64,000 bases of DNA. It comes from Candidatus Omnitrophota bacterium (GTDB lineage: Bacteria > Omnitrophota > Omnitrophia > Omnitrophales > JACQLI01). The translations under genes were made by a program, and so were the position numbers. Location: positions 789 to 64,788 of the forward strand of contig JACPCP010000012.1 in assembly GCA_016179745.1 (NCBI GenBank), given 5' to 3'. Positions 1,254 to 19,500 of this stretch are shown here, piece by piece; the first letter of the stretch is position 1, and each line of letters begins with the position of its first letter. Below the pieces are notes generated by a model. That model was not told the DNA's origin. It made no database searches and saw only the letters and a program-made list of their open reading frames with translations.

Positions 1254-3746
1254 TTACGCCGCCGATTCAAGGGAGCGGAATTCGGCGCTGAACTGGGCCA
1301 GAAGGGCCTGGTCGGCGGGCAGACTAAGAAGCTCGTTAAATTCGGCGGGCGGCTTGAGGGGATGACTTCCAAATCCGATGAACTGAATCTGAGCTTCCGG
1401 AATTCCCTTCCTTAATAAGGCAAACTCGGCCTGTTTCCGGCTGTCATAAGCCAGGAGCCGGAAAGCTCCAAGCTTCAGTGCACGATTCAACTTCTCAACG
1501 GTTTCACGCTGAACGTCCCTCTCCTCGGACTCGCCTTCGGTCACGACAGCCACCTGGAAGGAATCGCCGTATTGCTTCTTCAATAATCCAAAAAGCGGCC
1601 CCCATTTCTCAAACGCCGCCGCCTTCACAATCATCGCCCGCTTCGCATCTGCGGTCGAGGGAATCCCAGTAGCAAAGGGGACTGTCCCCTGCTTTTCTCC
1701 GGCGGAGGGGACTGTCCCCTTTGCTGCAAAAATTGATCTCCCGGAAACGGCTCTCTCCGCTTCCACAAGCGCCTCTTGCCACGCCCCCGCCTCCGGTGCC
1801 TCCCTCGCCACTGCATCGGGAATCCCGAACCGTTTAATGAAATCACGGCTGAAAATTCCGCCCAGGATCTGCAAGGCTACCCGGACTTCACTTCGATAAT
1901 TTACTCCTTGCGGATCACTTTCGCCTTCCAGCCGATCAGCAGTGAGGTGTCCGAGACTCATAAAGATTGTAAAGCTTGTGCCTTGACCCAAAGTACTATC
2001 AACCTTAATTTGACCGTCATACCCTTCAACATTTTTCTTAACTATACCCAGGCCTTCTCCCGTGCCCTTTATTCCCAACGGCTTTTTGGAAAAGTCCAGG
2101 CGCCAAATGTTTGGAAGGTCCTCCGGTGCAATCCCGTGGCCGGTATCCGAAATACGGATAAAATCACGTTCTCCCTGTCTTCCTGTTTCAATCGTAAGTT
2201 CTTTTCTCTCGCTCTCCTTCATTGCGTGAAGAGCGTTGTTAAAGAGGTTCGTCAACACTTGGATGAATATCTCTTTGTTCATTCCTGACGAAATCGGCTT
2301 GTTGGATCGGCTAACTTTTGCTGTCAAAATCAGGTTCTGCAGATCGACCCCGGCATCTTTCACTGCTATCACCGCCATAAACAAACTTTCCTGAAGAATG
2401 TTGACAAGCCGAGGATCAACTCTGCCCCAGTTGACTTCGGCAAACGTTCTGGTTTTCTTTCTAAGAATTTTATATCCAACACGAGGTTGGTTATTTCCTT
2501 CTTTGCTCCGCACCTCGGCGCGGCGGGCCTTATTGAGGTGTTGACGTATATGTATATTTGATTTATTATTCAGCATATGTTTAAGTTTTCGCCAAAGCAA
2601 CGTGAGAATACGACGAAGGTGGTCGTCAATCTGATCACCGTGGATGCCGCGACGCTTCTGGCTGGGAACCTCTTCAGCCAGAAGGGGTTTCATTTGCTCA
2701 TCTTCATCACGGGATGTATACTCCTTTTGCTTTTTTACCTTTGGGTGCTCTGGCTTGAGCCGGAATGAGGAGAAATGAGATGACGTTACAAGGGCAATGG
2801 ATGGCGATGGGTTCTCTGGTTTTCCTCGCTGCAGTAATAGGTTGCTTTGTACTTCTTGACTGGTTGAGCCGCCGACCCAAGCATTCCCACCACTAATCCT
2901 TCTTTCCATCCGCCGCACCTCGGCGCGGGACGAATCCGGTTTGCCAGTCCCCTCCAACTTTTTGCTCACCGCCGTCTTCTTTTCCTCGATGATCCCGTTC
3001 AATATTTGCGGGACACCCTCCAGCCTATGAGCTGTAACGCCGTAACCTTGAGCGATATGATGTCGTGCAAAGCTCTGTCCTTCTTCATACCATCCTTGCC
3101 CCTTCGCCAGGCGTATTGCTTCCTCCCCCATCAATCGCATGTCTCCCATCTGCTCAATCTCTCTCGCCTTGACTTTCCCAGAAATATCAGCCCTTGCTTT
3201 CAGTGCTTGCTCGACTTTCAGCAAAATTTGTAGTTCAAGCTGAGCAAAACGATCTCTTACAATTTTCTCGGCGATCTCCGGCTTTTCGCTGATAAAAGGA
3301 AGCAACAACAAAAGAAGGACCCCTTTTAGATCTGACTCCAGATTGAGATCGTTGATCACATCCGCCATCGCAAGAAGTTCTGAAACCTTTTCGTAGCGTG
3401 TCTCGTCAACCAAATGAACATGCTCTTCCGGCGTCCCTTTCCGCAACGGGAAATTCTCAATAAGCCACGCAAGGGCCGTCCCAAAATCGGTGAATTCCAA
3501 CCTCAGCTGATCCTGGGCCAGCGCCGTCGTAAGCAGCACCGTCAACTGGGCCAACATTCCCTGCTCTAAATCGCTTCGAATCGTTCCTGAATAGTTTGAA
3601 AACGCATCTTTCAGACTAAATGTCTCCGATCCCCTTTCTTTCCCTTCACTCCGCACCTCGGCGCGGCGGCCAGGGCTGGGTCGTTTGGCTAAAGCCTGCA
3701 CTTTGCCCAATAGCTGAAGTGAGAGGATGTGCGTTTCACGAAACAA
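1254..3746 (-). CDS. 830-aa multi-module protein (four punctuation motifs, HATPase_c module, conserved ...LESAA C-terminal module)
   Basis: ORF track (TTG start). The frame is actually open upstream to 3848. It has four in-frame R[SA]EVR copies. Its terminal module is paralogous to the end of ORF 4562..20122. Confidence 0.7.
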   Translation of the reverse strand: MFRETHILSLQLLGKVQALAKRPSPGRRAEVRSEGKERGSETFSLKDAFSNYSGTIRSDLEQGMLAQLTVLLTTALAQDQLRLEFTDFGTALAWLIENFPLRKGTPEEHVHLVDETRYEKVSELLAMADVINDLNLESDLKGVLLLLLLPFISEKPEIAEKIVRDRFAQLELQILLKVEQALKARADISGKVKAREIEQMGDMRLMGEEAIRLAKGQGWYEEGQSFARHHIAQGYGVTAHRLEGVPQILNGIIEEKKTAVSKKLEGTGKPDSSRAEVRRMERRISGGNAWVGGSTSQEVQSNLLLQRGKPENPSPSIALVTSSHFSSFRLKPEHPKVKKQKEYTSRDEDEQMKPLLAEEVPSQKRRGIHGDQIDDHLRRILTLLWRKLKHMLNNKSNIHIRQHLNKARRAEVRSKEGNNQPRVGYKILRKKTRTFAEVNWGRVDPRLVNILQESLFMAVIAVKDAGVDLQNLILTAKVSRSNKPISSGMNKEIFIQVLTNLFNNALHAMKESERKELTIETGRQGERDFIRISDTGHGIAPEDLPNIWRLDFSKKPLGIKGTGEGLGIVKKNVEGYDGQIKVDSTLGQGTSFTIFMSLGHLTADRLEGESDPQGVNYRSEVRVALQILGGIFSRDFIKRFGIPDAVAREAPEAGAWQEALVEAERAVSGRSIFAAKGTVPSAGEKQGTVPFATGIPSTADAKRAMIVKAAAFEKWGPLFGLLKKQYGDSFQVAVVTEGESEERDVQRETVEKLNRALKLGAFRLLAYDSRKQAEFALLRKGIPEAQIQFIGFGSHPLKPPAEFNELLSLPADQALLAQFSAEFRSLESAA
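1677..1689. repeat. GGGGAC-T-GTCCCC palindrome, copy a
   Basis: The sequence is ggggactgtcccc, with left arm extended (gcaaaggggac). It is read as K-G-T-V-P in the minus ORF. Confidence 0.85.
1707..1719. repeat. GGGGAC-T-GTCCCC palindrome, copy b
   Basis: The sequence is ggggactgtcccc, with right arm extended (gtcccctttgc). It lies 30 nt from copy a and is read as Q-G-T-V-P. Confidence 0.85.
1881..1895 (-). repeat. punctuation motif copy, peptide RSEVR, codon-diverged
   Basis: The + strand reads ccggacttcacttcg, which is cga agt gaa gtc cgg on the minus strand. It is in frame. Context NYRSEVRVAL. Confidence 0.8.
1950..2435 (-). other. HATPase_c (GHKL histidine-kinase-type ATPase) module without recognisable HisKA/H-box
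   Basis: N-box LTNLFNNALHA, G1 ISDTGHGI (D codon checked at 2147) and G2 GTGEGLGI are present. No phospho-acceptor His box is seen upstream within the module. Confidence 0.7.
2508..2522 (-). repeat. punctuation motif copy, RAEVR, canonical DNA
   Basis: The + strand reads ccgcacctcggcgcg(g). It is in frame. Context ARRAEVRSKE. Confidence 0.9.
2541..2569 (+). promoter_or_regulatory. putative +-strand promoter (cassette 3)
   Basis: TTGACG (2541..2546), a 17-nt AT-rich spacer, then TATTAT (2564..2569). It starts 18 nt after motif copy 2508. This is an AT-rich island in otherwise GC-rich DNA. Confidence 0.4.
2577..2768 (+). CDS. small (63 aa) hydrophobic-tailed protein, possibly leaderless, antisense to the 830-aa ORF
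   Basis: ORF track. The ATG lies 7 nt after the -10 box. The C-terminal HLLIFITGCILLLLFYLWVLWL looks like a TM helix. There is no homology support. Confidence 0.3.
   Translation: MFKFSPKQRENTTKVVVNLITVDAATLLAGNLFSQKGFHLLIFITGCILLLLFYLWVLWLEPE
2913..2927 (-). repeat. punctuation motif copy, RAEVR, canonical DNA
   Basis: The + strand reads ccgcacctcggcgcg(g). It is in frame. Context SSRAEVRRME. Confidence 0.9.
3651..3665 (-). repeat. punctuation motif copy, RAEVR, canonical DNA
   Basis: The + strand reads ccgcacctcggcgcg(g). The 20-mer tccgcacctcggcgcggcgg is identical to the one at 2507. Context GRRAEVRSEG. Confidence 0.9.
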
Positions 3747-4498
3747 CGTAATCTGCTTATCATAGGACTCAGACCATCTTCTCTCATTTCCGTTGGAAAA
3801 ACCATTTGAAGCGCTAAGTCCCTTGTGATGCCTGCCAATTTTTTCAGTTTATCCTTGAGAGAAACCATATCGGGCCTAAGATCCCTTTGTAACTCTTCTC
3901 TTGTTGCCTTCCGTCCGTCCATCCCTTCCTTAAAAGATTTACCAATCAAATCGACTACTCTTGTAATCTCTCTTTCCCATGCCTCTGCCATCAGCCGCTG
4001 ACGGATAATCCGCTCGCCCTGAGTCTTCAATTCCCTTCCGACCCTGAGACCCTTCCTCTCAGAAGATGAAGTTAATGTTTCTACCTGGCCGGCGGCTTCT
4101 TTGTGGGTCCTCTGCAAGAGTTTCCTCAGGAAACTCTGAACTTTTCTTTGAGAGCCACTCCGCACCTCGGCGCGGGAAAGGGAATTTTCCGGAATATTGG
4201 GAGATGCGCTTTTATCATCAAAAAGTATTTTATTTTTTATATTGACAGGGCCCCTTCTCCCCGTTAGAATCTCCCACGTTATGGATGATAATTTCACGCC
4301 CAGGGAAGTCGCAGTACTGGTGGAGGAACTCTGCAGTGAGTTTCGGACCGTTTCAGAAGTCGTGCGGCCGTTAAGGGAGGATATGGCCGATGTCAAAGAA
4401 CGGCTTACGACTCTTGAATTCAAAGTCCAATCGCTTGACGATGCGGTTCGCCTCTCAATCCCCGGCTTGAACAAGCGCGTTTCCCGCCTCGAAGTCAA
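3689..4498 (-). CDS. 269-aa open frame in phase with ORF 4562..20122 (continuation after a single TAA); N-terminal ~110 aa are the antisense image of the + gene 4281..4511
   Basis: ORF track (TTG start). It has the same codon phase as the 5,186-aa ORF and contains motif copy 4160. The part after the motif (SGSQRKVQSFLRKLL...) has normal composition. The part before it is Ser-rich low complexity. Confidence 0.3.
   Translation of the reverse strand: MTSRRETRLFKPGIERRTASSSDWTLNSRVVSRSLTSAISSLNGRTTSETVRNSLQSSSTSTATSLGVKLSSITWEILTGRRGPVNIKNKILFDDKSASPNIPENSLSRAEVRSGSQRKVQSFLRKLLQRTHKEAAGQVETLTSSSERKGLRVGRELKTQGERIIRQRLMAEAWEREITRVVDLIGKSFKEGMDGRKATREELQRDLRPDMVSLKDKLKKLAGITRDLALQMVFPTEMREDGLSPMISRLRCFVKRTSSHFSYWAKCRL
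4160..4174 (-). repeat. punctuation motif copy, RAEVR, canonical DNA
   Basis: The + strand reads ccgcacctcggcgcg(g). It is in frame. Context LSRAEVRSGS. Confidence 0.9.
4242..4270 (+). promoter_or_regulatory. +-strand sigma70-type promoter (cassette 1) with AT-rich upstream block
   Basis: TTGACA (4242..4247), a 17-nt spacer, then TAGAAT (4265..4270). The upstream block ttttatcatcaaaaagtattttattttttata matches the block at 12610..12641 at 32 of 38 positions. Confidence 0.65.
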
Positions 4499-4511
4499 AG
4501 CCGGGATCTGA
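4281..4511 (+). CDS. small (76 aa) coiled-coil protein, paralogue of 12714..13154; near-leaderless
   Basis: The ATG lies 10 nt after the -10 box. MDDNFTPREVAVLVEELCSEFRTVSEVV...LEFKVQSLDDAV aligns with MDAYTVTEVGTLLEEIRTDVKRIAEG... of the second cassette. It is convergent with the end of ORF 4562..20122. Confidence 0.55.
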   Translation: MDDNFTPREVAVLVEELCSEFRTVSEVVRPLREDMADVKERLTTLEFKVQSLDDAVRLSIPGLNKRVSRLEVKAGI

Positions 4512-4537
4512 CTTTCGTCGAACCTCTGACCTGTCCC

Positions 4538-4567
4538 CTTACGCTTCCTTACGCCGAAGTCTTACGC
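4538..4567 (-). repeat. three copies of GCGTAAG (minus strand) placing TAA in all three phases
   Basis: The + strand has cttacgc at 4538, 4548 and 4561. On the minus strand TAA falls at 4564 (phase of ORF2), 4551 and 4541, so the three stops are in three different phases within 26 nt. Confidence 0.8.
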
Positions 4568-7500
4568 CGCCGTTTCGAGGGCACGGTAGAGTTCGGCGTA
4601 GCGCTCAAGGGCGCCGGCAAGGACCTCTGAATAATAGGAAAGGTAAGCCTGGGTTTCCCGCTGGACCCTCTGCCAATCGAGATCCTGAATGATCCGCTTG
4701 AGAAGCGCTTGGTCCCCTTCAAGCCCAAGGGCCTCGATTCGGCTGAAATTTCGCAGGCGCACCGCTACTGAAGGTCCTTCGAGCACAAGAATCTGAGACC
4801 CCTCCAGTGCCTGGCTCAATTCAATCGCCACCTTTCGGGCCACGTCCGCCTCCGCTCGATCTTCCGGCGCCACCACAAAAATCTCCGGCAAAGGGGACTG
4901 TCCCCTTTGCTGCCCGAGTGCCACGAGGAACGCCCCCGCCTTTGCAAACATCTCGGGTCCGACCACAAACGCAGTCTTCGCACCCGTCTGTCGTATCGTC
5001 ATTGCGAGGAATCCCGTCGTCACCTCACGAGCAATCGTCCTAAACGCCCCCGCCTCCGGCCCCTCCGCCGCCACCGCTTCCGGAACTACGAAGAGCTCGG
5101 GGAATTTTACAAGATCTTCGGGCCGATAAATTCTCCCAAGCAGCCTCTCTGCCACACGGCGCACTGTGTCAAAGCGAACTTCCGCCCTTTTTTCCGTTTC
5201 CTCGCTACCTCTCCTCTCTTCCTTTTCTTTCTTGGCGGATTCCTGTTGCTTTTCAAGAAAGGATAGTCCCTCGTTAACAAATTTCTTCACAGTTGTTCCA
5301 GTCCCCTTTGGTGAACGCCAAATGGGGAGCTCACGGAATTGCTCACCTGTAAGTGGAGTAAGACCTTTTTGCTTTCTTACACGATTCACGAAATTAAATA
5401 TGTCCACCGGGTTGTCAAATTGTACTTTTCCTTGTTTGTTAAAATGACGCAGGAGTCTTTCCCACGCATCCTTTTTCATTCTTCGTTCACGCTCCCTTTT
5501 TTTCGCCTCCGTCTTCATCCCCGCCCGAGTCTTCACATACTCAAGGTTATTGCTAATCCTTTGCCGCCGAAACCTAAGACGATCGCCCTGCCTTGTGGGC
5601 TGGTCTTGTTGCGCATCAATAATCTGTCGGAACAATTCTTTCTGAGTTCGTTTCTTTTCGTCATCTGTGCCCCGTACCTCGGCGCGCTGGACTGCCTCAT
5701 CTAACGGTAACCTCCCGACTTGGGTGGGTCTTCTTCCAACCATCAGAAGAATCATATTCCCCGACCTCCCCGGCAACCGCTTCGGGGAAATAACGGGGAC
5801 TAGTGACAGTTCCGTAAATCCGGCCCGTCTCCGTAACTTCCCTAGTATCGTCTCACCGATAACGTTCGGGCTGAAAATTTGAGCTGCCGCCTCGGGATAA
5901 ACGTAGTGGAACGCCAGCAGGTGATCCGTAAGACGGGAAGTATTCTTAGTCCGAATCAAATTTTGAATCTCCCCATAATATCTCGGCCATGCTTCGCTCC
6001 CCTCACCTTGAACTTGATTGGGGATCTTTTGCGCCAGAAGAAGAATAGTGCTGGGCTCGCCAATTTCCCCTGTCATCTCCTCAATCACCGGATAATGCTT
6101 CCCCACTTCTTCGTAGGCGTGCCCCATGACTCCTTGGCCACCCCAAAGGGCGTCCACAGAAACCTGAAGATCGGTGATTTTCCGATCCTTCTTATTCAGG
6201 TTGGCGAAAAAATAGGCCACCGCTTCTTTCTTCTCAACCCCTGAACCGGACAAATGAAAAATTTCGACCCAGAGAATTGCTTGCGATTCATTGGTTTGAA
6301 GTCTCCGGATCTGAAATTGTTTCGTCGGCAACTCCTTGAATTCAAATTTAAAGTCTGGGAGCTCTTTTGCGACAAACTGGAACCGTTCTCCCTTCTTTGA
6401 ACTCCATTCGCTTTTGAAGACCGAAGTCGGCCCTTCCCTATTCACTAAGATCCCAAGCGCCTCGGGAGCATAAACCGTGTATGCTTGCGCCCGCACCTCG
6501 GCGCGGGAGGAAGAAGGTCTGAAAAATTTACGGTCGAGGATGCGGCGGCTGCCGTACATCCAGGTGCTGAGAAAAGCGCGGATCAGGCCCCAGCGGCGGG
6601 CGCGATCAAAATAAATTTCACGGCCGCCGACGTGAATGGCGTAATTTTTTTTCGGGACGCCGAAGTAGTCCAAGGCCGCTTCGAGTTCTGCGATCCTTTT
6701 GACACCGTCCGTCGTTCCCTCATCCCGCCCGTCCGAGGCCCCGAAAAAGACAAATTTGTCCACGCCGTTCTTCTTAAAATACTCAATGAGTCGATACAAC
6801 TGCTGCATCGAGGCGTGCACCCCGACGATCCCTTCCTGAAAAATCCCCGTCATCGGCATAAAACCGAGCCTCTTGGCAGCTTTTAAGGCACTCTGAATCG
6901 CCGGACTCCGGGATAACTCCCCGCCTTCGAAGGCCTCATCCGCAAGCACGATGTATTGGTCCACGATACGGCCGGCCCCGAAGGTCCAGAGGTTGAATTC
7001 CGTGCTTCCTTTCTGAACCGGGCTAAAATGCCGCACGACGGCCTTTCCCCGCCTGACTTCCAGATTGACGTGGCGATCGTTTAGATACGGACTTCGTCGC
7101 AGCCTCAGAAGTCCCTCCGGACGCCGGTCGACCCGCCGCTTACCGGTATCCTGATCGATGAAAACAATTTCTCGCAGGCTGCGATCCCGTTCGATTTGCC
7201 GCGTGACAATTCTCCGGCTTCTTGAGAGGGGGTACTGGGGATTTAAGTCCAGCCGGCCGCGAAGACCGGCCGGCCGTCCCGCTGCCGGCACCGTGACGTT
7301 GGGGGCTTCTTGAAGGAGACGCTGAAGCGTCGGCAGGAGGCCCGCGTCCAAGGCCTGCTGGGTGAGGTTAAACGCCGGATCATTTCCCTTTTCACCCTTC
7401 GGCGCAAATCCGTCCGTAATGAGAAAAACGCCCGGCCGGTCTCGCCGTCCCTGAACCCCATCCGGCAGAAAACTTTCTCCCGTCATTGCCTCTGGAATCT

Positions 7501-10500
7501 TAATTCCCAAAAGATGGAGGAGCGCCGGTGCGGCGTCGGCCTGCGTACCCGGGCGATCTTTGAGGGAAATTTTTCTGAAACCGCCACCCCCTTTGACATA
7601 ATCCAGGATCATGAAAGGGACATCCGAGGCGCTGTGCCCCGGCGTGTCTGCCCCATCAAGCCCCCCGTGGTCCGAAATGGCGACCAGGGCCGCACCGGTT
7701 TCCTGGGCCGCCCCGGTCACGATTTTTACGCCGCGATCCAAGGCCCTCAATGTCTCAATGCCGGAATCCCTGCCGGTCCCCTTTTTCGAAACGAGCCGGG
7801 TGACGGTAATTTCCCGTGCCGCAAAGTCCACGGCAAAAAAAACTTTCTCCCGTGCAGGATCGAAATCGGGAAACCGATTCTGAACTCCCAAGGCCGCAAT
7901 CATTTCTCCGGCCCCGACAAAGACTTCTACGCTGTTCGATGCATTCGCCTCTTGTAAAATATCAAATTGAATGTCAAAACCCGCATCCCCCCGTCGAACT
8001 CCCTTAAGTCGGCCGGTCCGCCCGAGTTCTCGAATGCGTTTCGTAAATTCCCGGCCCATAAAAACTTGATCCTCAAATTCATCATCCTGGACCCACAAGG
8101 TCGCCGATTCATCAAGATGCTGGCTCGCCACGTGGCTATTGAGGTCGGCCATGTCCAGATTGCTAATGACATCCCCGTCAGGGCCTGCCCTTTTGATAAG
8201 GTTCGCGTCCGCACGAGCTACGAAATACATACTTCCGCCGGGATAATGCCACAGATCTTTGTTCGGAAGCTGATTGTAGACTTCAGCCTCCGCAAAGGTT
8301 CCGTCTTTCGTTTTCACTTTCACGGTTTGGCGGATTCGGGGCATGGATATGCTTCCATAATCGAGGTTTTCGTGTCGGTAAGGCTTGTCTCGGCCGCGGA
8401 AGGTCTCGATAAAACCGGTTTTCTCACTCCCAAAACCCCAAAAGACTTTCCTCCCGTGCTTCCCCAGCCATTCGACCAGGCCATGACGCACGATGATATC
8501 CGGGATAACGGCTCTCCTGCTCGCCATTAACTCCTTCACATAACGGGTCATCCCGTAAATCGGCATCCCGCGCACATCCGTCGTGTCTTCATAGGCAAAT
8601 TGATTATCCCGGACGGCCCGGACCCACAATTTCTGCCGGTCTTTTCTATGATTCCAGCCGAATAGAAAGCGTCTCTTCCGAGCCTGCGGCGCCAAAATGC
8701 CAACCGGTCCAAACTCATCAATCTGCATGATGGACCGCATCGTCTCGTCAAAATGACCTGCCTTATATTCCCGGGCCATTATTTTCTTTAACTGATCCGT
8801 CGACCACACATACACAACGCCGTCGGCCAACGAATCAATGGGGACCCTCTTTCTCTTGATCTCCTCCCAGAGGGAGGGCGCTTCTTCTTTTAAGACCAGA
8901 GGGTGGTTGCTCAGGCCCTGTTGGTTTCTTGCCTCAAGCGCACGACGGCCCACAAGGCCGAGGCTCGCGGGGCCACGGATCGGCTTTTTACGGACTTCGG
9001 CGCGCTGAGGCCAGCCGTGCTTCCCGATCAGCTCCACGAACTGGACGGGCCCCAAGTTATCGTAAGACGCCCCATCGTCGGGAGTTAAGCCCCCCCGATT
9101 GAGGCCGGCCAGAATTTTCTGGACCGCCGGAAGAACAGGCTTTTCGATTTCAAACTCAGTAAAGAATATTTTCGGGGAACTTGCGTTGACCTTGGGTTCC
9201 AGAATCAAACGGACCTTCGTATTCCCAAACTGTTTTTCCGGCGTTTCGCTCCGCACCTCGGCGCGGGAGGGCGGCCGGCCCCTCCTTAACCGCCCCATCT
9301 CAACCTCACCACGGGAGATGCGGCGGCCATCCCGCCCGGCACTTTTGGAAATGGTACCGATCCGGGTACGCGGCCCCGCAAGAGCTCTGCGGGCCTCGGA
9401 GCGGAAGAAAGAAGGATCCGTTCGATCCCCAGGAAAGTTCTGTTCACTCCAGCTATCAGCAGAAGCGTCTATCACTGAAATTGCCGACCCACGGGGCATT
9501 CCTTGGGGTTCCAGATAAACGGAGCCGTCCGGTTCGACACGGTCAATTCGAAACGAAAAATCCAAGTCACCAGGCTCGCCGCCCAGTAAAAATCGGATGG
9601 ACTCATTGGACCCTACGGTCAGGTTCAGGTGAGTAGACCAATCCTGGGTCGGATCGATTGCCTGCAAAAGGGAGGGCACATCAGCCTTTTTAAAATGATC
9701 CTCGTGGGCAATTTTAACCACCCGAGGCGCATGAATCCGCACCTGAGTCAAAGCTCTTCCACCTCGACTCCTTCGTCTTTCTCTGGGTTGTATCCAAATT
9801 TTCCTCCGAGTGCCGTTGACGATCAGACCGCTGATTTCAAGTTCTTGGCCCTGCGCAACCCTGAAGATCTGCCTAAGCGCTGCGGCCGGTAACTGGGGTA
9901 AAAGCTCTATTTGAGGGTCCGTCCTTCTCAATAAAAGTCCTGGTCTGACATTAGGGGCCGGTCCTTCTGAGAGCGAAATCAAAACCCTTCTCCTGGGATT
10001 CTCTGGATCGCTCACGACCCATTCCTTCCCGGCATCCAATGGCAAGCTCTGTTCCTTCGAAGCTTCCAAGGGCGGAGCGTCCGCCCCTTTCTCATAAACC
10101 GTCACACCCCCCTGAATCATGAAGAAGTTTTGATCAAGATTATCTCCGACACGAACCGCCGCTCTGGACCCTGACGGAAAATGGATTTGGACAGTGCCGA
10201 AGTCTCCGTTTGCTTCTGCCGGATTCCACACAAACATTTCGTTGAATTCCTCTCCGCTCCGCACTTCGGAGCGGAGGGTGTCGGCGGCGGCAAAGGCACG
10301 CCCTTCCTCGAGACGCTCGACCAGAGCTTTGAAGTCGGTAAATTTCGTCTTCTGCGCCACAAGGGTATTTAAACCGAGCGCCTTGACTCCTGACAGAGTC
10401 AACTCAAAGTAACGGAGAGAGTTTGAATCTCCTGGATGTTGTTCCACTTCACGAACCCAGCCCTCTCCTATTTGATCCGGAGAGCCGGTGTGCAGGAGGA

Positions 10501-13500
10501 TCGGGGCCTGAACGCCCTCTGCTCTGAGCGCTTCGATCAAGTCACGGCCATTTAATCCAGGAAGTCCGTTATCAATAACCAAAAGGTCAATTTCCTTATC
10601 AACTCGTTTGTCTAAAAGAGACCGAAGAGCCGCTTCTCCGTCTCCAAATTCCGTAATCTTCTTCCCTTTGAAATGTGCCTTTAGAGTCTCCCTCATGCCT
10701 TCATCATCCTCGACAATAACCACGTTCTGAATCTTCCGCCCTCCCCTCAAGAGCCGGATTTGATTCGGCGCCAGCGTGAGCTCCGCCCGATTTGTTTCCT
10801 GCCGCACTTCCACTCGAGCGCCGGTCAGTTTGATGCGAAACCCGTCTGGGATCTCGATCGTGACCGTCCGGCCCGGTTCGCCGCCGAGATGGCGGATCAA
10901 GGGCTCCGAGACGAAGACCTCGATCGCATTTTCCGTTTTGGAATAGCCGAAGCCCGTAACGGCCGGAAATAACGGCGCCTCACCCACTCTTTCAATCTTG
11001 CTCAGAAGAGTCCCTTCCAGAATGACTGACTGGCCGGGCCGGTGGACAAACCTGAACAGGCTCTCCGCCCCCTTGACAGCTTCCAGCACGAAATTCAACG
11101 GATCGGCAGACCGAACATAGGTTGATCCAAAATCGTGTTCCCCGGATTTGCTGGTGCTCAGGGCCTCATGGACTTCCCAGGGAAAATGTTGAAATGTGAC
11201 CTTTGCCTCTCCAAATTGAGCGGCCGCCTGAACTGCGCTCTCCGGAACAAAGGATTCGGCTTCCTCTACGATAAAAGCATTCTTTACCAGGACGTTGTAG
11301 ATGAAGTCCCTGGACCGTGTTCCGCTCTTCCCTTCTCCGCTCCGCACCTCGGAGCGGGCCTCGTCACGACGGTGAAGCTGAGGTAAGCCCGAGAGAGAAG
11401 TGGGCTGGCTCGCTGCGGCTTGAGTCGATTTTTCCATCTTTTTCAGACGCTGATAATGCTGCTCTCGGACTTGCCAAACAGTAAGCCCTTGCTTCGAATC
11501 CAGAGGTTTTCTTAAGCGTTCGGCTTCCTGCCTTCTTAGCCGATCGAGGTCAAAACCCAGGCTCGTCCGAACCAGGTCAAGCTTGCTTAGGTCACGAACG
11601 GGTGTGTCTCCAGGCGATTGGACCCAAACATTACCAAACGGGTGGGAATGAGCGTAAATTTCGCTGCCCGTCTGGGGCACCAGAGATTGACCGAGGGCAA
11701 GAAAAGGCAGACTCTCCACCGCAATCACAATGCCCTGTTCATCCGGCTGCAAGACTTTGGCTGATTCGACGAATCCCAGTCGTGACGCAAGCTCCTGGGC
11801 TTCCTCCCTCATGGAACCATCCTTTTGTCCGTCCCGAGGTTTTCCCAGAAAAAAGTCTCCCTGATGTAAGAGAAATACCGGTCTCCATGCGAAATAGGGC
11901 TTGAAGCGGCCGACTTGACGGGGGTGGGGGGAATAAATCAAGGCGAGCTCGTAATTCCGGCTGATTGCATCCTCCAAGTTTTTAAACCCCTTGAACGGAT
12001 GGAAAAAGTGAATCCGGGGTTCTTGAGGCGAATCCCGTGAAATGACGCCCGAACTGTAGGGTCTTGCCCTTTTTTTAATTTCGTTAAAGAACAAGGGGTA
12101 GGCTTCTTTTTTCGTGAGAAGGATCAAGCTGATGGCGTAGGCGTAAAGGTTCATCGAACGCCCCGTCTCGGCATGCCCATAAAGATTGACGAGGAACTTC
12201 AGGGACTCTTCCGTCCCGTAACGGTCGACCCACTGCATCAATAATTGATCAAGCGTCTGCTGGATCTTTTGAGGCTGCTTTTTGACCTGTCTTAACCTGA
12301 GCAGCCGCTTCTGCTCACGGTTCAGCTCTAAGAAATGCTCTTGAGCCGGCAGGCCGTTTGGGTTGAATTCTCCTTCTTCACCAATGAGATCCTTCACAGT
12401 TTGAATCTCTCTTTCAATTTCCCCCAAATTCGCCGGATGATCCCGGTAATCAATAAATTCCTGGACATCGCCAAGCCAGCTAAAGAACGGTTGTGTGCTC
12501 ACCCGCACCTCGGCCCCCGGCTCGGACGGAGCCGGGGACGGAGGAGTGCTCGCCTGAGCGGGCGAGCGCACCTCGGAGCGGGCTGGCTGGCGCTTATCAA
12601 AATATGTATTTTTATCATCAGAAGATATTCCATTTTCTATATTGACAAACTCGCCGGCCGGCGCTACACTCCCTCCCCCTGTTTTAAAGAACTCATTCAC
12701 CAGGAGAATTGCGATGAAAAGAGAAAAACCAGTGAAGCCAGCTAAAAAGATGGATGCATACACGGTCACAGAAGTCGGAACGCTGCTTGAAGAGATCAGG
12801 ACCGACGTCAAGAGAATCGCTGAGGGCCACTCGGGACTTGATAAGAGATTAGAGGATATTGAAGTCTCAAACCACGGGATCCAAGATCGTCTCCAAATGG
12901 TGGAACTCAGCAACTCAATCATTAAAGGCAAAGTCTCCAGACTTGAGGATGCTACTTCAAAACTGTTGAAGGATCTCAAAGACACCCGCCTGGAACTTAA
13001 GGCCGACATCGCCCAGACAAAGGTTGAATTGAGAAACGAAATGGCTGAGATGAGGGTTGAACTCAAAGCAGAAATTGTGGGTTCCAAGACCGAGCTCAAG
13101 AATGAGATCAAAGAACTCGGCGGCCGGTTGAGCGCTGTCGAAAACCCACGCTGAGTTTTTACTCTGCGCACCTCGGAGCGGGAGAGGGAGGCGTAAAGAT
13201 CCCGGGCGCGGGAGAGGGTGTCCGGAGTAAAATTGGCGCCGGTCAAGACAATGGCGATTCTCCTGTCCCGAAGAAGAGGCCTATACTCTTCTTTTGACAT
13301 CAGAAAATAAACCACGGCCAGCGAGGCGGCGGCCGAGGGTTCAACTTTATACCCTGCCTGATTGAGATCAACGAACGCCCTGATCAGCAAGTCTTCGGGG
13401 AATTCCACAAATTCGAAAAGTTTCGATCCGAAGGCTTGAAGCGTCTCTACCGCAAGCTTCTGCGCCATTTGGATCGCAAGCCCGTCGGCCATCGAAGCAT

Positions 13501-16500
13501 CTCGAAGCATCGGAACGGCGCCGATGACCTTGGTCTTGCCGCCGTGAGCATGGGAATCGAGGGTCATTCCCACGAGCGGCCCTCCCCCGCCGGAAGGCAT
13601 CACCAGATAATCCGGATCGCCGATCGCCTCCCGAATGTCCTCCAGAATGCTCGCTCCGCCCAAAGCCATACTCTCCCCATTGGAAGCATAGACGTGAAGC
13701 ATCCCTTTCTCCTTCGCATACGCCTCCAAAACGACAAGAAGCTCATTGATATTGACGAGCCGATGCTTGATCTTGTCTTCGCTCTCCCCCGGATCGAGCA
13801 CTCCCGCCACCTGAGCGTTAAGGATAAAATCATCCAAATAAACGATTTCCACCAAATCGACCGTTGGCACACGCTTAAAATTCCTCCAAAGGTAATAAGG
13901 TTTCTCAAACTTGCGGATCTTCTTTTTCTTGGTCTCATTGAGGAAGGTGTAGGCCACCATCGTCACCTTAAAATCGGGCGGGAGTTTCCAGAGCGTGCCG
14001 TCTTTCAGAACGATCCCGTGTTTTTTCAGGTAACGCACCGTGTAGAGGAGCCCCTGAATGGCATTGCCGGAGGAATAGATTACCGCTTCTTTCAATTTTC
14101 CGGAATCGATCGCTTCCCGGTTTTCAATGAGGAGGTTGACATACTGACGCCACTTGAAAGATCCCACCGGCGACAAATATTCCCGGGCGGCGAACAGTTC
14201 GAAGCGAACGCCTGTCCGCTCTATGAATTCCCGAACAGCGGGGAGATGGGTAAGGGAAACGATCTTTGGTTTGAAAAGGCGCCGAATCAGATAGAAAATC
14301 CGGCCGAAGAAGCTGGTTTTTGCACGGATGAGCTGACGCACAAACTCTGTTCCCCGTTTGAGCCGTTCAAGGGGGAATTGATTTAAGAAGGCATTTCTTT
14401 TTGTGAGATCCCCTTCGGGCGCGGCCTCGGGAACTTTCCCTTCCGGACTTCCATTCCGTCGCCACGTGGCGTGGTAAAGCCGGAGGTATTTTTTCACAAG
14501 CAAAAGGGGACTGTCCCCTTTTTTGGGGACTGTCCCCTTTTTGTTGGGTGGGCTCTTATTCGGGCTGAACCGCTCGATATCTTCCAGGGCCGGCATAAAA
14601 TCGATTCCTTCCAGCCGTCCCAGTACACTGGCGTAATCTTTGAGCTCTGAAATCCCCTTTGAGGCTTGGATCTTTTGAAGAAGGCCCCTTTTTGCGGAAA
14701 GATTTCTCAAGTGTCTGATGAATCCCCTGTTGCCTTGGAAAAGATCGAGAACTTTGTTCACAACCCGGGCACGCTCCCGAAGCCCTGCCTGGTCTCTTCC
14801 GTCCGGCTCTGAAAGTCCCCGCCCTTTAAGTGCCTTAATCACAAAATTGGAAATGATTGTGAAATCCGGAGGGTTGGTCCCATTGACGCTTTCCCTCGCC
14901 GCAGACATCAAATCATCGGGCGCCAGCACTTCTATCATCTCCTGATAAATCTCCTCCGCCAGCTCATTGCCCCTGAGCTCGGAGCGGCGGGGGGAGGAGA
15001 TGGATTTCCGGAGAAAGGGTTCGCCATTGATCCAGAGTTCCAGCGAATCGGCCGGCGTTTCCGGCTTGAATAAATGCCGGCCTTCCGGGGTGACAAAGTA
15101 GAAGGTTACAGAACGGCGGTCGCCGTGGAGGGGCTGCGCCGCCAGAAGATAACCGGACTCCTGCAGAATCTTCCGGACTGATCGCAAAGCGATTTTTTTC
15201 TCTTCCGGTAACCGGGCAGCGTCAAGATACTGTTCGAATTGCTGCTCCAGAATCCCTTGAAGAGTCATCTGGGAAGGCATGCTCCGAGGACGATCCAGCC
15301 CGGAGGGGTCCACCTCCGCCACCAGGGGGAACTTCAATTTTGATTCCGGAAAATCCAGATGAAGGACCGGGAAATCTTCAATGACCGGGAAGGCTTCATC
15401 TTCTTTCGGGCTTCTCATCCGGAGAATCACTGTGTCTTCCGGAATTAAATTTCTCCTTCTCCAATCCAAAATGCCGTGAGTGACCCCGATTTTTTTCGCT
15501 TGAGCCGACGGAGGCCCCGGCCTTTCGGACTCCCTGGAAAGATCCAAAAGACGGCCGAGCAGCCGGTCGATTCTCTCAGCCCCTTCCTTTGTAATAGAGG
15601 TGCGCCGCTCGCCGGCGCCCACAGGAAGCCTGAAAGTCCGGGTCTTTCTTCCTGTTTCTTTCACATGGCGCCTCTGCTCCCGGACTTTTTCGAGGGCTCC
15701 GTCCTTTTCAAAAAGCTGCAGAGCAAAAATGGCGGACAAAAACTGGCTCTCCAATTCAGCCAGCCTTTCCAGAGCGGGGCTGATCTGCCGCCACGTCTTC
15801 ACCACATTTCCGGCTTGGGCCTGCCACCTTTCGCTTAAACTTTGATATTGCTCTCTCCAGGGGGACTGGGCTTCTTCGCTGGGCGCTGACACAAACGCCT
15901 GATAGGCCGTCGCCAACTGCTTTGTGGTCCGGAAAGCGGACCCCTCCTGGTGCGCCAAGGCCACGGGTGTCAATTCATCGTGGAAAGTCACTCTTACTTC
16001 AGAGCGGACGAACTCCGGCGTTGACGGAGTCGAACTCTTGGGCGGTGCGCTTCTGGCGAGAAGCCGGCCCGTAAGATCAAAGAGATGGGTAATGTCTTCA
16101 GTCCCCTCCTGTCGAAAGATGATCCGCACGCCTCCGTCGTCCGGATCCACAAAAAAATCGAAATCCCCGTGGGTCTCAAGCTCATCCTGCTTGAGCCAAA
16201 CCATGGACCCATTGCCCGTGCTCTTCGGAATCAGGAGGGGGATCGGCTTTCCGTCTTCCGCCTGAAAGAGATGGAAGTGTCCCTTGGCGTCCACAACGAC
16301 CGCCACAGCCTCCCTCAGGTGGGACGGCGCACCGGAAGAGTTGGCAACCAGGTCGAAGAAAGGCCCCTCCGGATCGCCTCCGACTCTAAAAGAAAAGGAC
16401 GACCTTCCCAGAGGGACCATCTTCAGCGTCTTTCCGCCTGTTTCAAACAGGAAGAGCGTCAGATACCGTGTCGCCGGAAACTTCGGAGAAGAGACCATGA

Positions 16501-19500
16501 CAACGATAAGCTCGGGGGATCCCCTGCCGATCGTGGTGATTCTGCTCGTCACCTTTCGCCGGTTAAAAAACCGGCCGTCCCCCTCGAATTTGATTCCCTT
16601 GAGGGGCCCCAGGCTCTGACGGATCCCCTCTTTCGAAACTCCCTTCAAACTCAGCGCTTTTTCGAGGGTCCCCCAGGGATTCCACCAGCCGTTTCCCAGG
16701 GAGAAGGACTGGGCCGGAATGCTGACCCTTTTCAACGTCTGGCTTGAGCCCTTGGAGGAGGAAGCCCCGTAGATCTTGCCCAGGCGGACATTTTTAAATA
16801 CCACAGATTTCTTTTCAACGGCCAGCTCCCAAAGGTCCATCACCCGGCCGATCTCAGCCAGCCTCGCCGCTTCACTTTGCTTCATCGTAAACCCGGAAAC
16901 ATTCATGAGGTCGGTCACCGGAGACCCCGTTTCCAAAAACTTCCCGTGCTGGACCATCGCCTTCATTAACGCCCGGAGGTGGATTCGAATTTGTGCGTCA
17001 TGGTCCCAGAGATACAGCTTGTCAATGAGGGTCCTGCGGCCGTCCGGAGCGTCAGGAAATCGAATCAGCGCCGGTGCTACCAGCTGCTGCGGGGACTTGG
17101 CTTCCGGGTCCGCTACTTTAAAAGCGCTCCTGAGCAGGTCCGTGAAACTTTCCGGAGTCGGCCTTTCCACCTTTTCCGAGCGCACCTCGGAGCGTTCGGC
17201 CGGGGCCGTCTGCGCCGGAGAGGGAAAAATTTTTCCGCTCCAGACCTCATGATTTTCATTGGCGCCGCTCAAAAGGACCACAAAGGCGTCCATCCCCTCT
17301 TTCTCCCAGAAATCCCGAAAGACGGTCGGAGCGGCGGCCGTCACCCCGGCGGTGACTTCGTAACGGCGTTCCTCTCCTTGATTCAAACCTTTGAGATCCT
17401 TCGCAACTTCCCGGACTGCAGGAATTCCATATTTCACCTCATCCACCTTGACCACGTAATCAACCACGTCCCATGCAAGTTTCCATGGAATTTCGATCCG
17501 CTCCACGGCAATCCCCTTGGAGAGCGTTCCGGGCGGGATCGCCCGGGTCACCTCCCGGCCATTTCTCATCGCCTCATAAAAGCCGTCGATCCCGGGTGTC
17601 TGGACGCCGATGACCTTGACTTCCACGTCAAGGCCCGATTCCCGAATCTGGTCTTTCAGAATCTTGGCGCCTGCGACAAGGCCTCCCGCCCCGACCGGAA
17701 CGGCCACTCCGATCCGCTTTGCCGGCAGACTCCCATTCTCCGCCGCCCTGCGAATCTGGTTGAAGATTTCATCGAAGATCGTGGCATAACCGGTCACGAC
17801 TCCCGCAAAATGATTGACCCGGATCACTTTCCCTGGCTGGTCCTTTTTAAGCCGGGAGACGGCCTCTTTGGCTTTGTCATAGGTCTTGCGAATGAGAAGC
17901 TCAAACGTGATGCCCTGTTTTTTCAAGCGCTGCTGCGCCTGTCGAAAAATCTTGATCTTCTCCGGGCCGGTCGAATCCTCTCCCACGGCAACAACAAGCC
18001 TTGTTTTCTTCCTGTCAATCTTCCCGGCCTCTGCCAGTTTCTCAAACGCCAGAAGGAGGGCGTAACCGTGGTTGAAGGTCGTCTGCGTGGCGATGGCCTC
18101 GATTTGCCGGCCTCCCGTCTTTGCCCGTTCAATCTCCTGCAGAACGAAATTCAGAACGCCGAGGATCTTGAACGAATTCCCCGGATTGCGGGTGGCGTCA
18201 TAAAGGTAGACCGGCTTCCCCGCCGCAGCGCTGATCCTCCCGGCCCTCACCCATTCCGGGTATTGAATCTCCTCAAACCCCGAGTCCCGGATCCGCTTTT
18301 GGGCCAAACCGATCGCCTCGGAATCCAAGCCCGGGAAACGCTCCAACCGCTCTGGATTCTCATTCTTAAGGATGCCCCCGCCCACTTCCCGGAATGGCGT
18401 TAAATCGTTCCGTGCTTCAGAACGAATAACGGAAAATCCGCTTTTGAGAAACTCCCGGCGGGCTTCCTTGCGGCTCTGTTGAATGGGCCTGAAATCAACG
18501 CCGTGCCAGCGGTAATCACGATAGGCCACCGGCAGGGCGGCGGCGTCTTCAATCTGCGAAAAAGGGTAAGGGGAAACCGGTTTTCCCAGAAAGGCATTGA
18601 AGTAGCTCTCTCGAGACTCCACTTCACCCTCCCCCCCGGAAACGGTCTCATCGAACCGGGGAGAGACGAGCGCATAAGAGAATCCTTTTTGATGGAAGGT
18701 TTCTCTCAAACCGTCCGTGTGGAAACCGCCCGTAATGAGGATGACGGCCCGGGCGCCGTGGCGGCGGATTTCTCTTTCGACATTCTCCGCCATCCAACGC
18801 TCCCGCTCCTTCGCCCCTTCATAAAACCCGATGGCCTTCCGAAGAAAGGAGGAAAGCGCCCCGGGAAGCCGGACACGATCCAGTCTCTTCAGGCGGGGAT
18901 AATCCTTTGCGGTGATTTCCAATTCGAAGAGGCGCCGAAGGAACCGGTAATCGAAAAATTCCTTAAGATGCCGCTTTTCTTTCGCCGTTTTGGCGAGACG
19001 GAATGAAAGAAGCCGGCCCAGGCGGTCGAGCTCTTCGGAAAGCACGTCCGGCTTGATTTCATTCCGGAAGACGAGCCACTGGAGCCAGATCTTCAGATAA
19101 GGGTAGCGGTCAAAGACGAAGTTGAGAGGCAGCCGGTCAACGGCCCTCTCAAGAAGAAATCGGATGTCACCCTCTCCCTCCCCTCTCCCCCCAAGAAGAA
19201 GAATTTCCAGTTCCTGGAAAATGGATTTTGGAAGAAACCTCCGCACGTCGTTTAGAAAACGGCCGGAGTCCTTTCGGATCGCCCGGCGGTCGAGGCGCCT
19301 TTCGATTTTGAGGAGCCGGGCGAGGCGCACGAGGGCGGGCCATTCCTTCTGGGACGAGGCAGACTGGAGATTGAGCCCCAAAATTTGGCGGGAATTTTTA
19401 TGAAGCTCACGAAACCAGGCGTCCAGGCCCAGCGTCCGGCGCTCGAAGGCCTCCTGCCGCCTCAAAAATTCCCGGAGCGGCCTTGAAAAGCCCGCTTCAA

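Follow-up and report, generated by a model that had tools for sequence, protein, structure and literature searches.

Giant open reading frames (ORFs) of Omnitrophota, antisense overlapping genes and polyproteins are each already known. Bacterial gene pairs that overlap in antisense include dmdR1/adm in Streptomyces and candidates in enterohaemorrhagic Escherichia coli; such cases are mostly single, young and disputed. In the excludon of Listeria, a long antisense messenger RNA (mRNA) encodes a protein and opposes a neighboring operon. As for the giant ORFs, West-Roberts et al. (2023; bioRxiv 10.1101/2023.11.21.568195) state that the cleavage points of the giant proteins are unknown, and do not decide whether translation of the ORFs follows the predictions, or whether cleavage of the products occurs and at which sites. 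Here, we analyze a 64-kb stretch of contig JACPCP010000012.1 from a Candidatus Omnitrophota bacterium (hereafter the window), which matches the class of multi-enzyme metabolic clusters in giant Omnitrophota ORFs (bioRxiv 10.64898/2026.06.07.730766; 10.1101/2023.11.21.568195), and in which a first-pass annotation had noticed three small plus-strand cassettes, each with a promoter-like site and a short ORF, lying antisense to a giant minus-strand frame.

We consider it quite probable, from comparison of this locus with its relatives, that two of these elements (cassettes 1 and 2) are self-contained plus-strand units nested in, or placed at the end of, a giant ORF whose frame has been kept translatable through them. 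The minus strand of the window is nearly filled by two huge ORFs, of 14,593 and 5,186 amino acids (aa), and cassette 2 lies inside the shorter one. In each plus-strand unit, a sigma-70-type promoter would be followed by a short leader and an ATG, with a GGAG ribosome-binding site in cassette 2; in cassette 1 the ATG stands 10 nucleotides (nt) past the −10 hexamer, so that its mRNA would be nearly leaderless. In the opposite direction, ribosomes on the giant mRNA would translate across the cassette and produce a filler of about 195 aa that is not selected for its sequence.

The plus-strand ORFs of cassettes 1 and 2 (coding for proteins of 76 and 146 aa, respectively) look, in all comparisons, like real genes with products of one conserved coiled-coil family. 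Homology searches, which the first-pass annotation had proposed, recovered 18 homologs of the 146-aa protein with 42–63% identity, which share the conserved blocks TEVGTLLE, AEGHSGLDKRLE, HGNSRRLD and RLEDAVSKL, and 63 cluster representatives for the 76-aa protein. The earlier claim that the two products are paralogous coiled-coil proteins finds no support in a direct BLASTP comparison (E = 0.1, not significant); however, members of the 76-aa family match positions 12741–13010 of the window (tblastn, E = 2e-9), and an Omnitrophota protein (L026) displays an N-terminus of the long, 146-aa type fused to a C-terminus of the short, 76-aa type. Thus, the two cassettes are homologous and the paralogy stands, linked through their families. 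Both small proteins begin with a lysine-rich N-terminal tail, and AlphaFold2 predicts the 146-aa protein to be a single long helix (residues 18–143, predicted local distance difference test score 88) behind it.

Independent pipelines called both small ORFs as genes. When codon usage is scored with the giant ORF as training set, their frames come out best (+0.22 and +0.20), the giant frame through the same stretches reaching −0.22 and −0.29. A comparison of selection on each strand in homologous loci had likewise been suggested: among ten family members, the mean BLOSUM62 score of mismatches is −0.08 in the plus frame and −1.08 in the minus frame, that is, substitutions are conservative in the former and radical in the latter, which nonetheless stays free of stop and cysteine codons. 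The plus-strand protein hence appears to be selected for its sequence, and the opposite stretch seems only to be kept translatable, rather than forming a second protein under sequence selection. Of the earlier proposal that positions 12714–13154 are coding on both strands, what endures is that both frames are constrained; a minus-strand product conserved in its sequence is not part of it.

The relatives used in these comparisons come from metagenomes and GTDB genomes, several of which are named Omnitrophica or Omnitrophota, and a 7-sequence alignment was used for a profile scan of genome contigs; four of the seven GTDB loci with relatives of the guest genes derive from records bearing one of these names. 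The family would be specific to Omnitrophota-type bacteria, whose giant multi-enzyme ORFs carry it either internally on the opposite strand or in convergent orientation at the 3′ end. This constant association (the 3′ convergent form being that of cassette 1 and of the relative L023) suggests that the small protein may serve or regulate the giant ORFs. The neighborhood of a distant, non-embedded relative (L038), with MreC, PBP2 and transfer RNA synthetases, gives no functional hint.

The promoter-like sites reported earlier at 4242 (TTGACA-17-TAGAAT), 12642 (TTGACA-17-TACACT) and 2541 (TTGACG-17-TATTAT) are exact in sequence and position. With 10–11 of 12 bases matching, they are the top three sites in the first 20 kb and the only ones on either strand of the whole 64 kb with at least 10/12 matches and at least 5/6 in the −35 hexamer. 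The AT-rich islands that carry them are equally distinct, having a local GC content of 29–32% as against 56% for the window and accounting for three of the only four 50-nt stretches in it with a GC content of at most 26%. The fourth such island (49831–49883) has no promoter and was ruled out as a cassette; other purine-rich islands (40385–40814, 54286–54752, 46449–47400 and 23788–24148) feature neither a plus-strand ORF nor a promoter, and the purine-skewed islands outside the cassettes mostly correspond to hydrophobic, membrane-like stretches of the giant protein. Each site does follow shortly upon a copy of the recurrent motif described below, the −35 hexamers standing 17, 66 and 60 nt beyond the copies that end at 2523, 4175 and 12581, respectively. 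The match between the 38-nt upstream blocks of cassettes 1 and 2, which include the −35 hexamer, is 32 of 38 as reported and is seen nowhere else in the window; it is also correct that the promoter block is read in the same phase in two cassettes, as VNIKNKILFDDK and VNIENGISSDDK in the minus frame.

Among 15 diverged loci, TTGAC is invariant and the 17-nt spacer, a nearly invariant TAnnnT, the GGAG and the ATG are all retained, while the sequences of the spacers and the leader have drifted. We read these conserved elements as the probable phylogenetic footprint of a working promoter and ribosome-binding site. Indeed, sigma-70-type hexamers with a 17-nt spacer are conserved in the relatives at a fixed distance from the start codon, the −35 hexamer lying 72–81 nt upstream of the ATG. 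On the antisense strand of the relatives' giant frames, nearly every strong promoter-like site drives guest genes; on the sense strand there are none. A site matching at 11 of 12 bases (TTGAAA-17-TATAAT) occurs at 14960 on the minus strand of the relative L020, just upstream of the 5′ end of the giant frame, and is probably the giant gene's own promoter; a second promoter-like site of L020, diverging from it at 15093 on the plus strand, precedes a 76-aa ORF.

Opposite these small genes, the giant frame remains open. In the window it runs without a stop through cassette 2 (inside ORF 4562..20122) and cassette 3 (inside ORF 1254..3746), as had been noticed earlier, and the arrangement of cassette 2, with plus ORF 12714..13154 open inside an open minus ORF, recurs in about 20 related contexts. 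In these distinct contexts, which hold some 26 copies of the gene, the small gene is crossed from end to end by one open minus frame; the search for minus-frame stops in homologous embedded cassettes, again an earlier suggestion, returned none. The frame is usually open to the contig ends, with 1,350 to 4,976 open codons on the longer contigs, and the phase is the same in every locus, such that the third codon positions of both strands coincide. Selection is detectable in each of the two frames, although the amino-acid sequence of the minus frame is not itself conserved. When synonymous codons are shuffled gene by gene, the probability of an open minus frame ranges from 0.002 to 0.71, with a product of ~1e-9; this and the joint probabilities that follow overstate independence, the loci being mutually related.

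The DNA next to the genes includes 118 nt of non-coding promoter and leader in which 18 of 18 loci have no stop in the giant frame (summed log10 P = −16.8), the other frames having about two stops on average. Over the 819 flank codons opposite the promoters and leaders, the giant frame has neither a stop nor a cysteine, as against 48 stops and 42 cysteines in one of the other two frames and 42 stops and 15 cysteines in the remaining one; likewise, the 2,407 filler codons opposite the small genes include no cysteine. Within the embedded genes, all 81 codons that precede a histidine or glutamine codon end in C, which means that the minus frame reads TGG at these points and never TGT, TGC or TGA. 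This bias (log10 P = −37.7, of which −22.4 goes beyond stop avoidance alone) stands out against third codon positions that otherwise differ in 63% of sequence pairs, and follows from the near absence of cysteine from the giant ORFs. The synonymous codon choice of the plus-strand gene would thus be bent to keep the giant frame free of stops and cysteines.

Relatives outside giant ORFs serve as controls. The copy in L023, which lies 88 nt outside the 3′ end of the giant ORF, has a stop in the corresponding frame within the gene and more in its flanks, and the distant non-embedded relatives L038–L040 show 3–10 stops in that frame and mixed third bases. L014 and L015, two strains with an identical small protein, are distinguished by an indel of about 30 nt (10 codons) that immediately follows a RAEVR peptide of the giant frame; this frame is open in both, so that the indel preserves it. 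The earlier description of the cassettes as embedded in the giant frame is apt for cassette 2 and has to be amended for cassette 1, as the TAA of the 5,186-aa ORF lies 51 nt beyond the stop of the plus-strand gene; the same frame then continues past the TAA at 4562–4564 and through cassette 1, open, cysteine-free and punctuated by the motif. This TAA could be a recent split of a longer ORF, a stop that is read through or a true gene boundary.

The avoidance of cysteine extends over the giant ORFs at large. The 5,186-aa ORF has none, and the 14,593-aa ORF only three (codons at 39744, 36966 and 36957), all of them within two active-site SCTSN motifs of glyceraldehyde-3-phosphate dehydrogenase (GAPDH). 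In the giant frames of 13 relatives, cysteine makes up 0–0.09% of residues, as against ~0.3–1.9% in ordinary genes of the same contigs. Near absence of cysteine is a signature of the giant ORFs in general, and the glycolytic enzymes of this Omnitrophota host sit in almost cysteine-free ORFs. The guest cassettes amount to a natural experiment on the translation of giant ORFs, their sequence being fixed partly by the opposite gene and partly by its promoter. DNA whose sequence is set by a gene or promoter on the opposite strand nevertheless conforms to the giant frame, with neither stops nor cysteines; this is strong comparative evidence that the frame is read through and would be hard to explain without ribosomes doing so.

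The second feature shared by the giant frames is the motif that punctuates them. Its nucleotide form noted earlier, GCACCTCGGMGCGG on the plus strand, has 26 matches in the window, 25 of them on that strand, and all matches checked inside the minus ORFs fall in one codon register, where they encode an in-frame peptide R[AS]E[VL]R of the giant ORFs with 33 copies in the window at the peptide level (e.g., at 2508, 2913, 3651, 4160, 6491, 9251, 12566, 13166, 21751 and 55315). Some R[AS]EVR copies use other synonymous codons, which implies that the peptide itself is selected. A nucleotide-level constraint may exist in addition, given the commonest codons, CGC-KCC-GAG-GTG-CGG, which contain a Shine-Dalgarno-like GAGGTG, and given that the first arginine is mostly CGC, a codon making up only 16% of arginine codons in the giant ORF. 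None of the 33 in-frame copies falls inside any Pfam domain of the window; the motif is a recurrent short peptide between functional units. In the relatives, the giant frames hold 74 copies in 37,715 aa, with 0.43 expected, whereas the 7,496 aa of ordinary genes from these contigs are free of the motif. The motif is thus a lineage-wide feature of giant frames. Several copies also precede strongly hydrophobic, membrane-like stretches of the giant protein (40385–40814, 46449–47400 and 54286–54752, minus strand).

With respect to the cassettes, the motif acts as a bracket: in most related loci, R[AS]E[VA]R peptides of the giant frame enclose the cassette, the first copy coming after the promoter, and in many the second bracket lies at most 5 codons from the stop of the small gene. 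In cassette 2 the two brackets are identical 17-mers. We propose, more tentatively and with somewhat less than an even chance of being right, that giant Omnitrophota ORFs are translated continuously as polyproteins across their guest genes, that selection purges antisense stops and cysteines and that R[AS]EVR marks the processing points. Such points would segment the polyprotein, and the bracketed filler would be released and discarded. The inward-facing promoter might also yield RNA antisense to the giant mRNA, and mutual interference of the small gene with the downstream part of the giant gene, the two being convergent, would then be likely.

Several observations tell against the nested-unit and polyprotein readings. 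Besides the relatedness of the loci, many of the relatives lie on short contigs (0.7–2 kb), where the giant host ORF is unverifiable, and cassette 1, being beyond an in-frame TAA, does not require read-through. No consistent terminator was found after the plus-strand genes. Pfam and NCBIfam gave only generic coiled-coil matches below the cut-off for the small proteins. Cleavage at the motif is pure inference, and Pfam found no peptidase domain in the window.

Table 1. Features of the cassettes and their giant host frames, in window coordinates
Feature	Positions	Strand	Remarks
Giant ORF, 14,593 aa	20143..63924	minus	ORF list
Giant ORF, 5,186 aa, cysteine-free	4562..20122	minus	PALP, response-regulator and iPGM domains; ORF list and Pfam
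TAA stop of the 5,186-aa ORF	4562..4564	minus	In frame with the open frame that continues through cassette 1
Further open frames after the two giant ORFs	3689..4498 and 1254..3746	minus	ORF list
Motif copy gcgcacctcggagcggg	12566..12582	minus	RSEVR in the giant frame at 12566-12580; promoter-side edge of cassette 2
AT-rich block resembling an UP element, cassette 2	12610..12641	+	Precedes the −35 hexamer
Predicted sigma-70-type promoter TTGACA-17-TACACT, cassette 2	12642..12670	+	Conserved in 15 relatives
Shine-Dalgarno AGGAGA, cassette 2	12702..12707	+	6-7 nt before the ATG
Predicted gene, 146-aa protein	12714..13154	+	Lysine-rich N-terminal tail and one long helix (coiled coil); conserved family
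Filler, 195 codons: giant frame across cassette 2	12581..13165	minus	No stop, no cysteine; serine/leucine-rich; sequence not conserved
Second motif copy (RSEVR)	13166..13182	minus	11 nt past the plus-strand stop codon; far edge of cassette 2
Motif copy (RAEVR)	4160..4176	minus	Upstream of the cassette 1 promoter
AT-rich block and predicted promoter TTGACA-17-TAGAAT, cassette 1	4210..4270	+	Promoter at 4242-4270
Predicted gene, 76-aa coiled-coil protein	4281..4511	+	Short form of the family of the 146-aa protein
Motif copy (RAEVR)	2508..2523	minus	Upstream of the cassette 3 promoter-like site
Putative promoter-like site TTGACG-17-TATTAT, cassette 3	2541..2569	+
Two small hydrophobic ORFs and 12-bp hairpin, cassette 3	2577..2896	+	2577..2768 (63 aa), 2780..2896 (38 aa); hairpin 2655-2684
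Motif copy (RAEVR)	2913..2929	minus	Closes the cassette 3 module

Cassette 3 repeats the layout (a motif, a promoter-like site matching at 10 of 12 bases, ~390 nt and a motif), and the giant frame there is likewise free of stops and cysteines. All three plus-strand ORFs that the first-pass annotation assigned to the cassettes do exist, with the reservation that those of cassette 3 are unsupported as genes: no homologs of the 63-aa ORF were found, gene-call records include neither ORF, and the codon score is ambiguous, the module scoring poorly in every frame. Their hydrophobic character is the expected antisense of a charged segment, for the minus translation of this module is charged and polar, and the serine/leucine-rich composition claimed for the antisense segments accordingly applies to cassette 2 but not to cassette 3. 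Of all terminator-like hairpins in the first 20 kb, the best (12 base pairs, z = −2.45) is the one inside the 63-aa ORF, at a distance of ~80 nt from the putative transcription start. Given this hairpin and a start directly behind the −10 hexamer, a small antisense RNA could possibly arise from this cassette. Overall, we give a functional plus-strand unit at cassette 3 roughly an even chance. The 966-aa minus-strand protein called in this region has no close relatives that might show conservation of the module.

The use of giant frames by antisense guests appears to be wider than one gene family. In the relative L036, a motif copy precedes a promoter-like TTGACG-17-TATACT, behind which come a hicB-like ORF and the toxin gene hicA (PF07927, 37 bits), all on the plus strand; the pair (410–985) adjoins a coiled-coil cassette and lies inside an open minus frame of 1,118 aa with a single cysteine. 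Similarly, in L015 a gene for a clan AA (retropepsin-like, DTGA) aspartic protease is positioned antisense in the open frame at 881–1267, downstream of the coiled-coil gene, with a motif copy 12 nt past its stop. The hicB-like, hicA and protease genes, whose codons stand directly opposite those of the giant frame, are all devoid of TTA, CTA, TCA, ACA and GCA (P = 0.006, 0.03 and 0.0007), which are the codons that give a stop or a cysteine in the giant frame. That this protease might lead to the processing enzyme is pure speculation.

Turning to other explanations, the main role of the cassettes could lie at the RNA level, with cis-antisense RNAs throttling or processing the giant mRNA by transcriptional interference or duplex cleavage and the protein being secondary. 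We regard this as unlikely, even though the predicted promoters are strong and conserved and converge on giant ORFs from within or from the 3′ end, transcripts without a terminator after the plus-strand genes may run on in antisense, and cassette 3 could encode only a structured RNA of ~120 nt that includes the above hairpin. Such a role leaves unexplained the clear purifying selection on the protein and the conservation of the Shine-Dalgarno sequence and ATG. Moreover, no Rfam family matches within the window, and the leader of cassette 2 has no structure hiding the ribosome-binding site (z = +0.63). An RNA-level effect is in any case compatible with nested plus-strand genes in a translated giant frame rather than exclusive of them.

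Another conceivable origin, which we deem improbable, is that of mobile cassettes inserting at the motif by site-specific recombination in the manner of an integron, the 14–17-nt motif being the site. The identical 17-mers flanking cassette 2, the several paralogous cassettes at different places in a genome, the variable cargo (coiled-coil gene, hicBA pair and aspartic protease) and the frequent breakage of assemblies at cassette edges (L001, for instance, stops at 13165, and short contigs hold many of the relatives) are all what such mobility would predict. However, the motif is translated in frame at 33 junctions between modules of the window, most of which have no cassette, and the synonymous variants among its copies indicate selection on the peptide. 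Cassettes 1 and 2 are old paralogs and not recent copies; a cassette-free site was not seen, seven near-identical assemblies all carrying the cassettes that they span; and L015 and L016 diverge inside the protease gene and not at the motif. A fresh insertion would, furthermore, break the giant frame, Pfam recovered no recombinase domain in the window, and structure of the attC type around the motif does not exceed that in shuffled controls (z = 0.24 and −0.56).

It is very unlikely, in our estimate, that the giant ORF truly ends and restarts at each cassette, with the open minus frame being a by-product of the composition of coiled-coil genes. Gene callers do cut the giant gene short at the cassette, an antisense frame has a probability of up to 0.71 of being open by chance in some family members, and cassette 1 adjoins a real stop codon; but gene composition does not account for the non-coding promoter and leader, which are stop- and cysteine-free in the giant frame (and not in the others) in all loci, nor for the avoidance of cysteine as well as stops by the forced synonymous choices, nor for the identical phase of every embedded locus alongside the stops of non-embedded relatives. 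Finally, the notion of shadow ORFs, by which the plus-strand frames would be open by chance opposite a genuine giant gene and the promoter-like hexamers next to them equally fortuitous, is scarcely credible for the set as a whole: many plus-strand ORFs of more than 60 aa, up to 474 aa, do lie antisense to the giant ORFs, and the idea is plausible for cassette 3 with its hydrophobic, never-called ORFs of ambiguous codon score and without homologs, but it is excluded for cassettes 1 and 2 by their conserved families, conservative substitutions in the plus frame only, best codon scores, independent gene calls and the promoter, Shine-Dalgarno sequence and ATG footprinted over 15 loci.

The wider content of the window conforms to the giant multi-enzyme type: one ORF exceeds 10,000 aa, and many distinct enzyme domains are tiled along the two, namely TIM, Aldose_epim, PGK, Gp_dh_C (GAPDH), GPI, F_bP_aldolase (class II), PGM_PMM, PALP (a pyridoxal phosphate-dependent enzyme) and iPGM_N, together with a Response_reg receiver and HATPase_c. 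Near-identical or identical contigs of this sequence are present in several public runs. At window positions 3764–3769, 37 nt (CTGGGTCATGACCAAGAACTCTTCCTCAGGAAAAGGG) that are present in four other assemblies of the same sequence are missing. The resulting frameshift divides a single ORF, called as 966 aa elsewhere, into 3689..4498 and 1254..3746. Public gene calls (L001 369–8507, L008 1–9006 and L003 515–3415) cut the giant ORF at each nested cassette, as some pipelines do. The treatment of antisense genes by the caller therefore affects the length annotated or reported for a giant protein, and such lengths call for caution.

If the polyprotein reading is correct, R[AS]EVR would supply the missing cleavage map for the giant proteins, and the nested cassettes would establish, for the first time on a widespread, conserved and statistically solid basis, that bacteria use long stretches of DNA in antisense on both strands. 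Antisense overlapping genes are a contested topic, for which the cassettes provide a comparative case of unusual clarity. The polyprotein reading predicts that filler peptides exist, that peptide termini map to R[AS]EVR and that transcription starts ~7 nt after the −10 hexamers. A text search of the two above-cited preprints (bioRxiv 10.1101/2023.11.21.568195 and 10.64898/2026.06.07.730766) found no mention of opposite-strand genes, R[AS]EVR or cysteine depletion, and nothing relevant came from full-text literature searches that targeted the motif, Omnitrophota combined with antisense, or giant ORFs free of cysteine.

Among the known systems closest to the locus are the giant genes of Omnitrophota (West-Roberts et al. 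2023), which it resembles both in its two ORFs tiled with many enzyme domains and in having relatives in named Omnitrophota genomes from groundwater. Integron cassettes are likewise short modules of variable cargo bounded by a repeat; unlike them, the units described here carry their own promoter, their repeat is translated in frame as a peptide and recurs at every junction between modules, and no integrase or attC-type structure was found. As in an excludon, a predicted protein-coding mRNA would be antisense to a neighboring, oppositely oriented gene; in contrast to it, the unit is nested inside an ORF and not situated between divergent operons. With polyproteins of the viral type, the giant frames share the combination of many enzymes in one frame with a short conserved peptide between units, which here also brackets filler; they differ in that the locus is bacterial and chromosomal, cleavage is putative, and the motif spacing is irregular, with modules of 0.1–4 kb or more that may hold several domains. 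Lastly, as in antisense overlapping pairs, frames on opposite strands share several hundred bases and both are constrained. Unlike in the known pairs, however, it is the short gene that is conserved and has a footprinted promoter, the long frame being merely free of stops and cysteines, and the arrangement recurs in about 20 diverged loci, in a single phase and with several kinds of guest genes.

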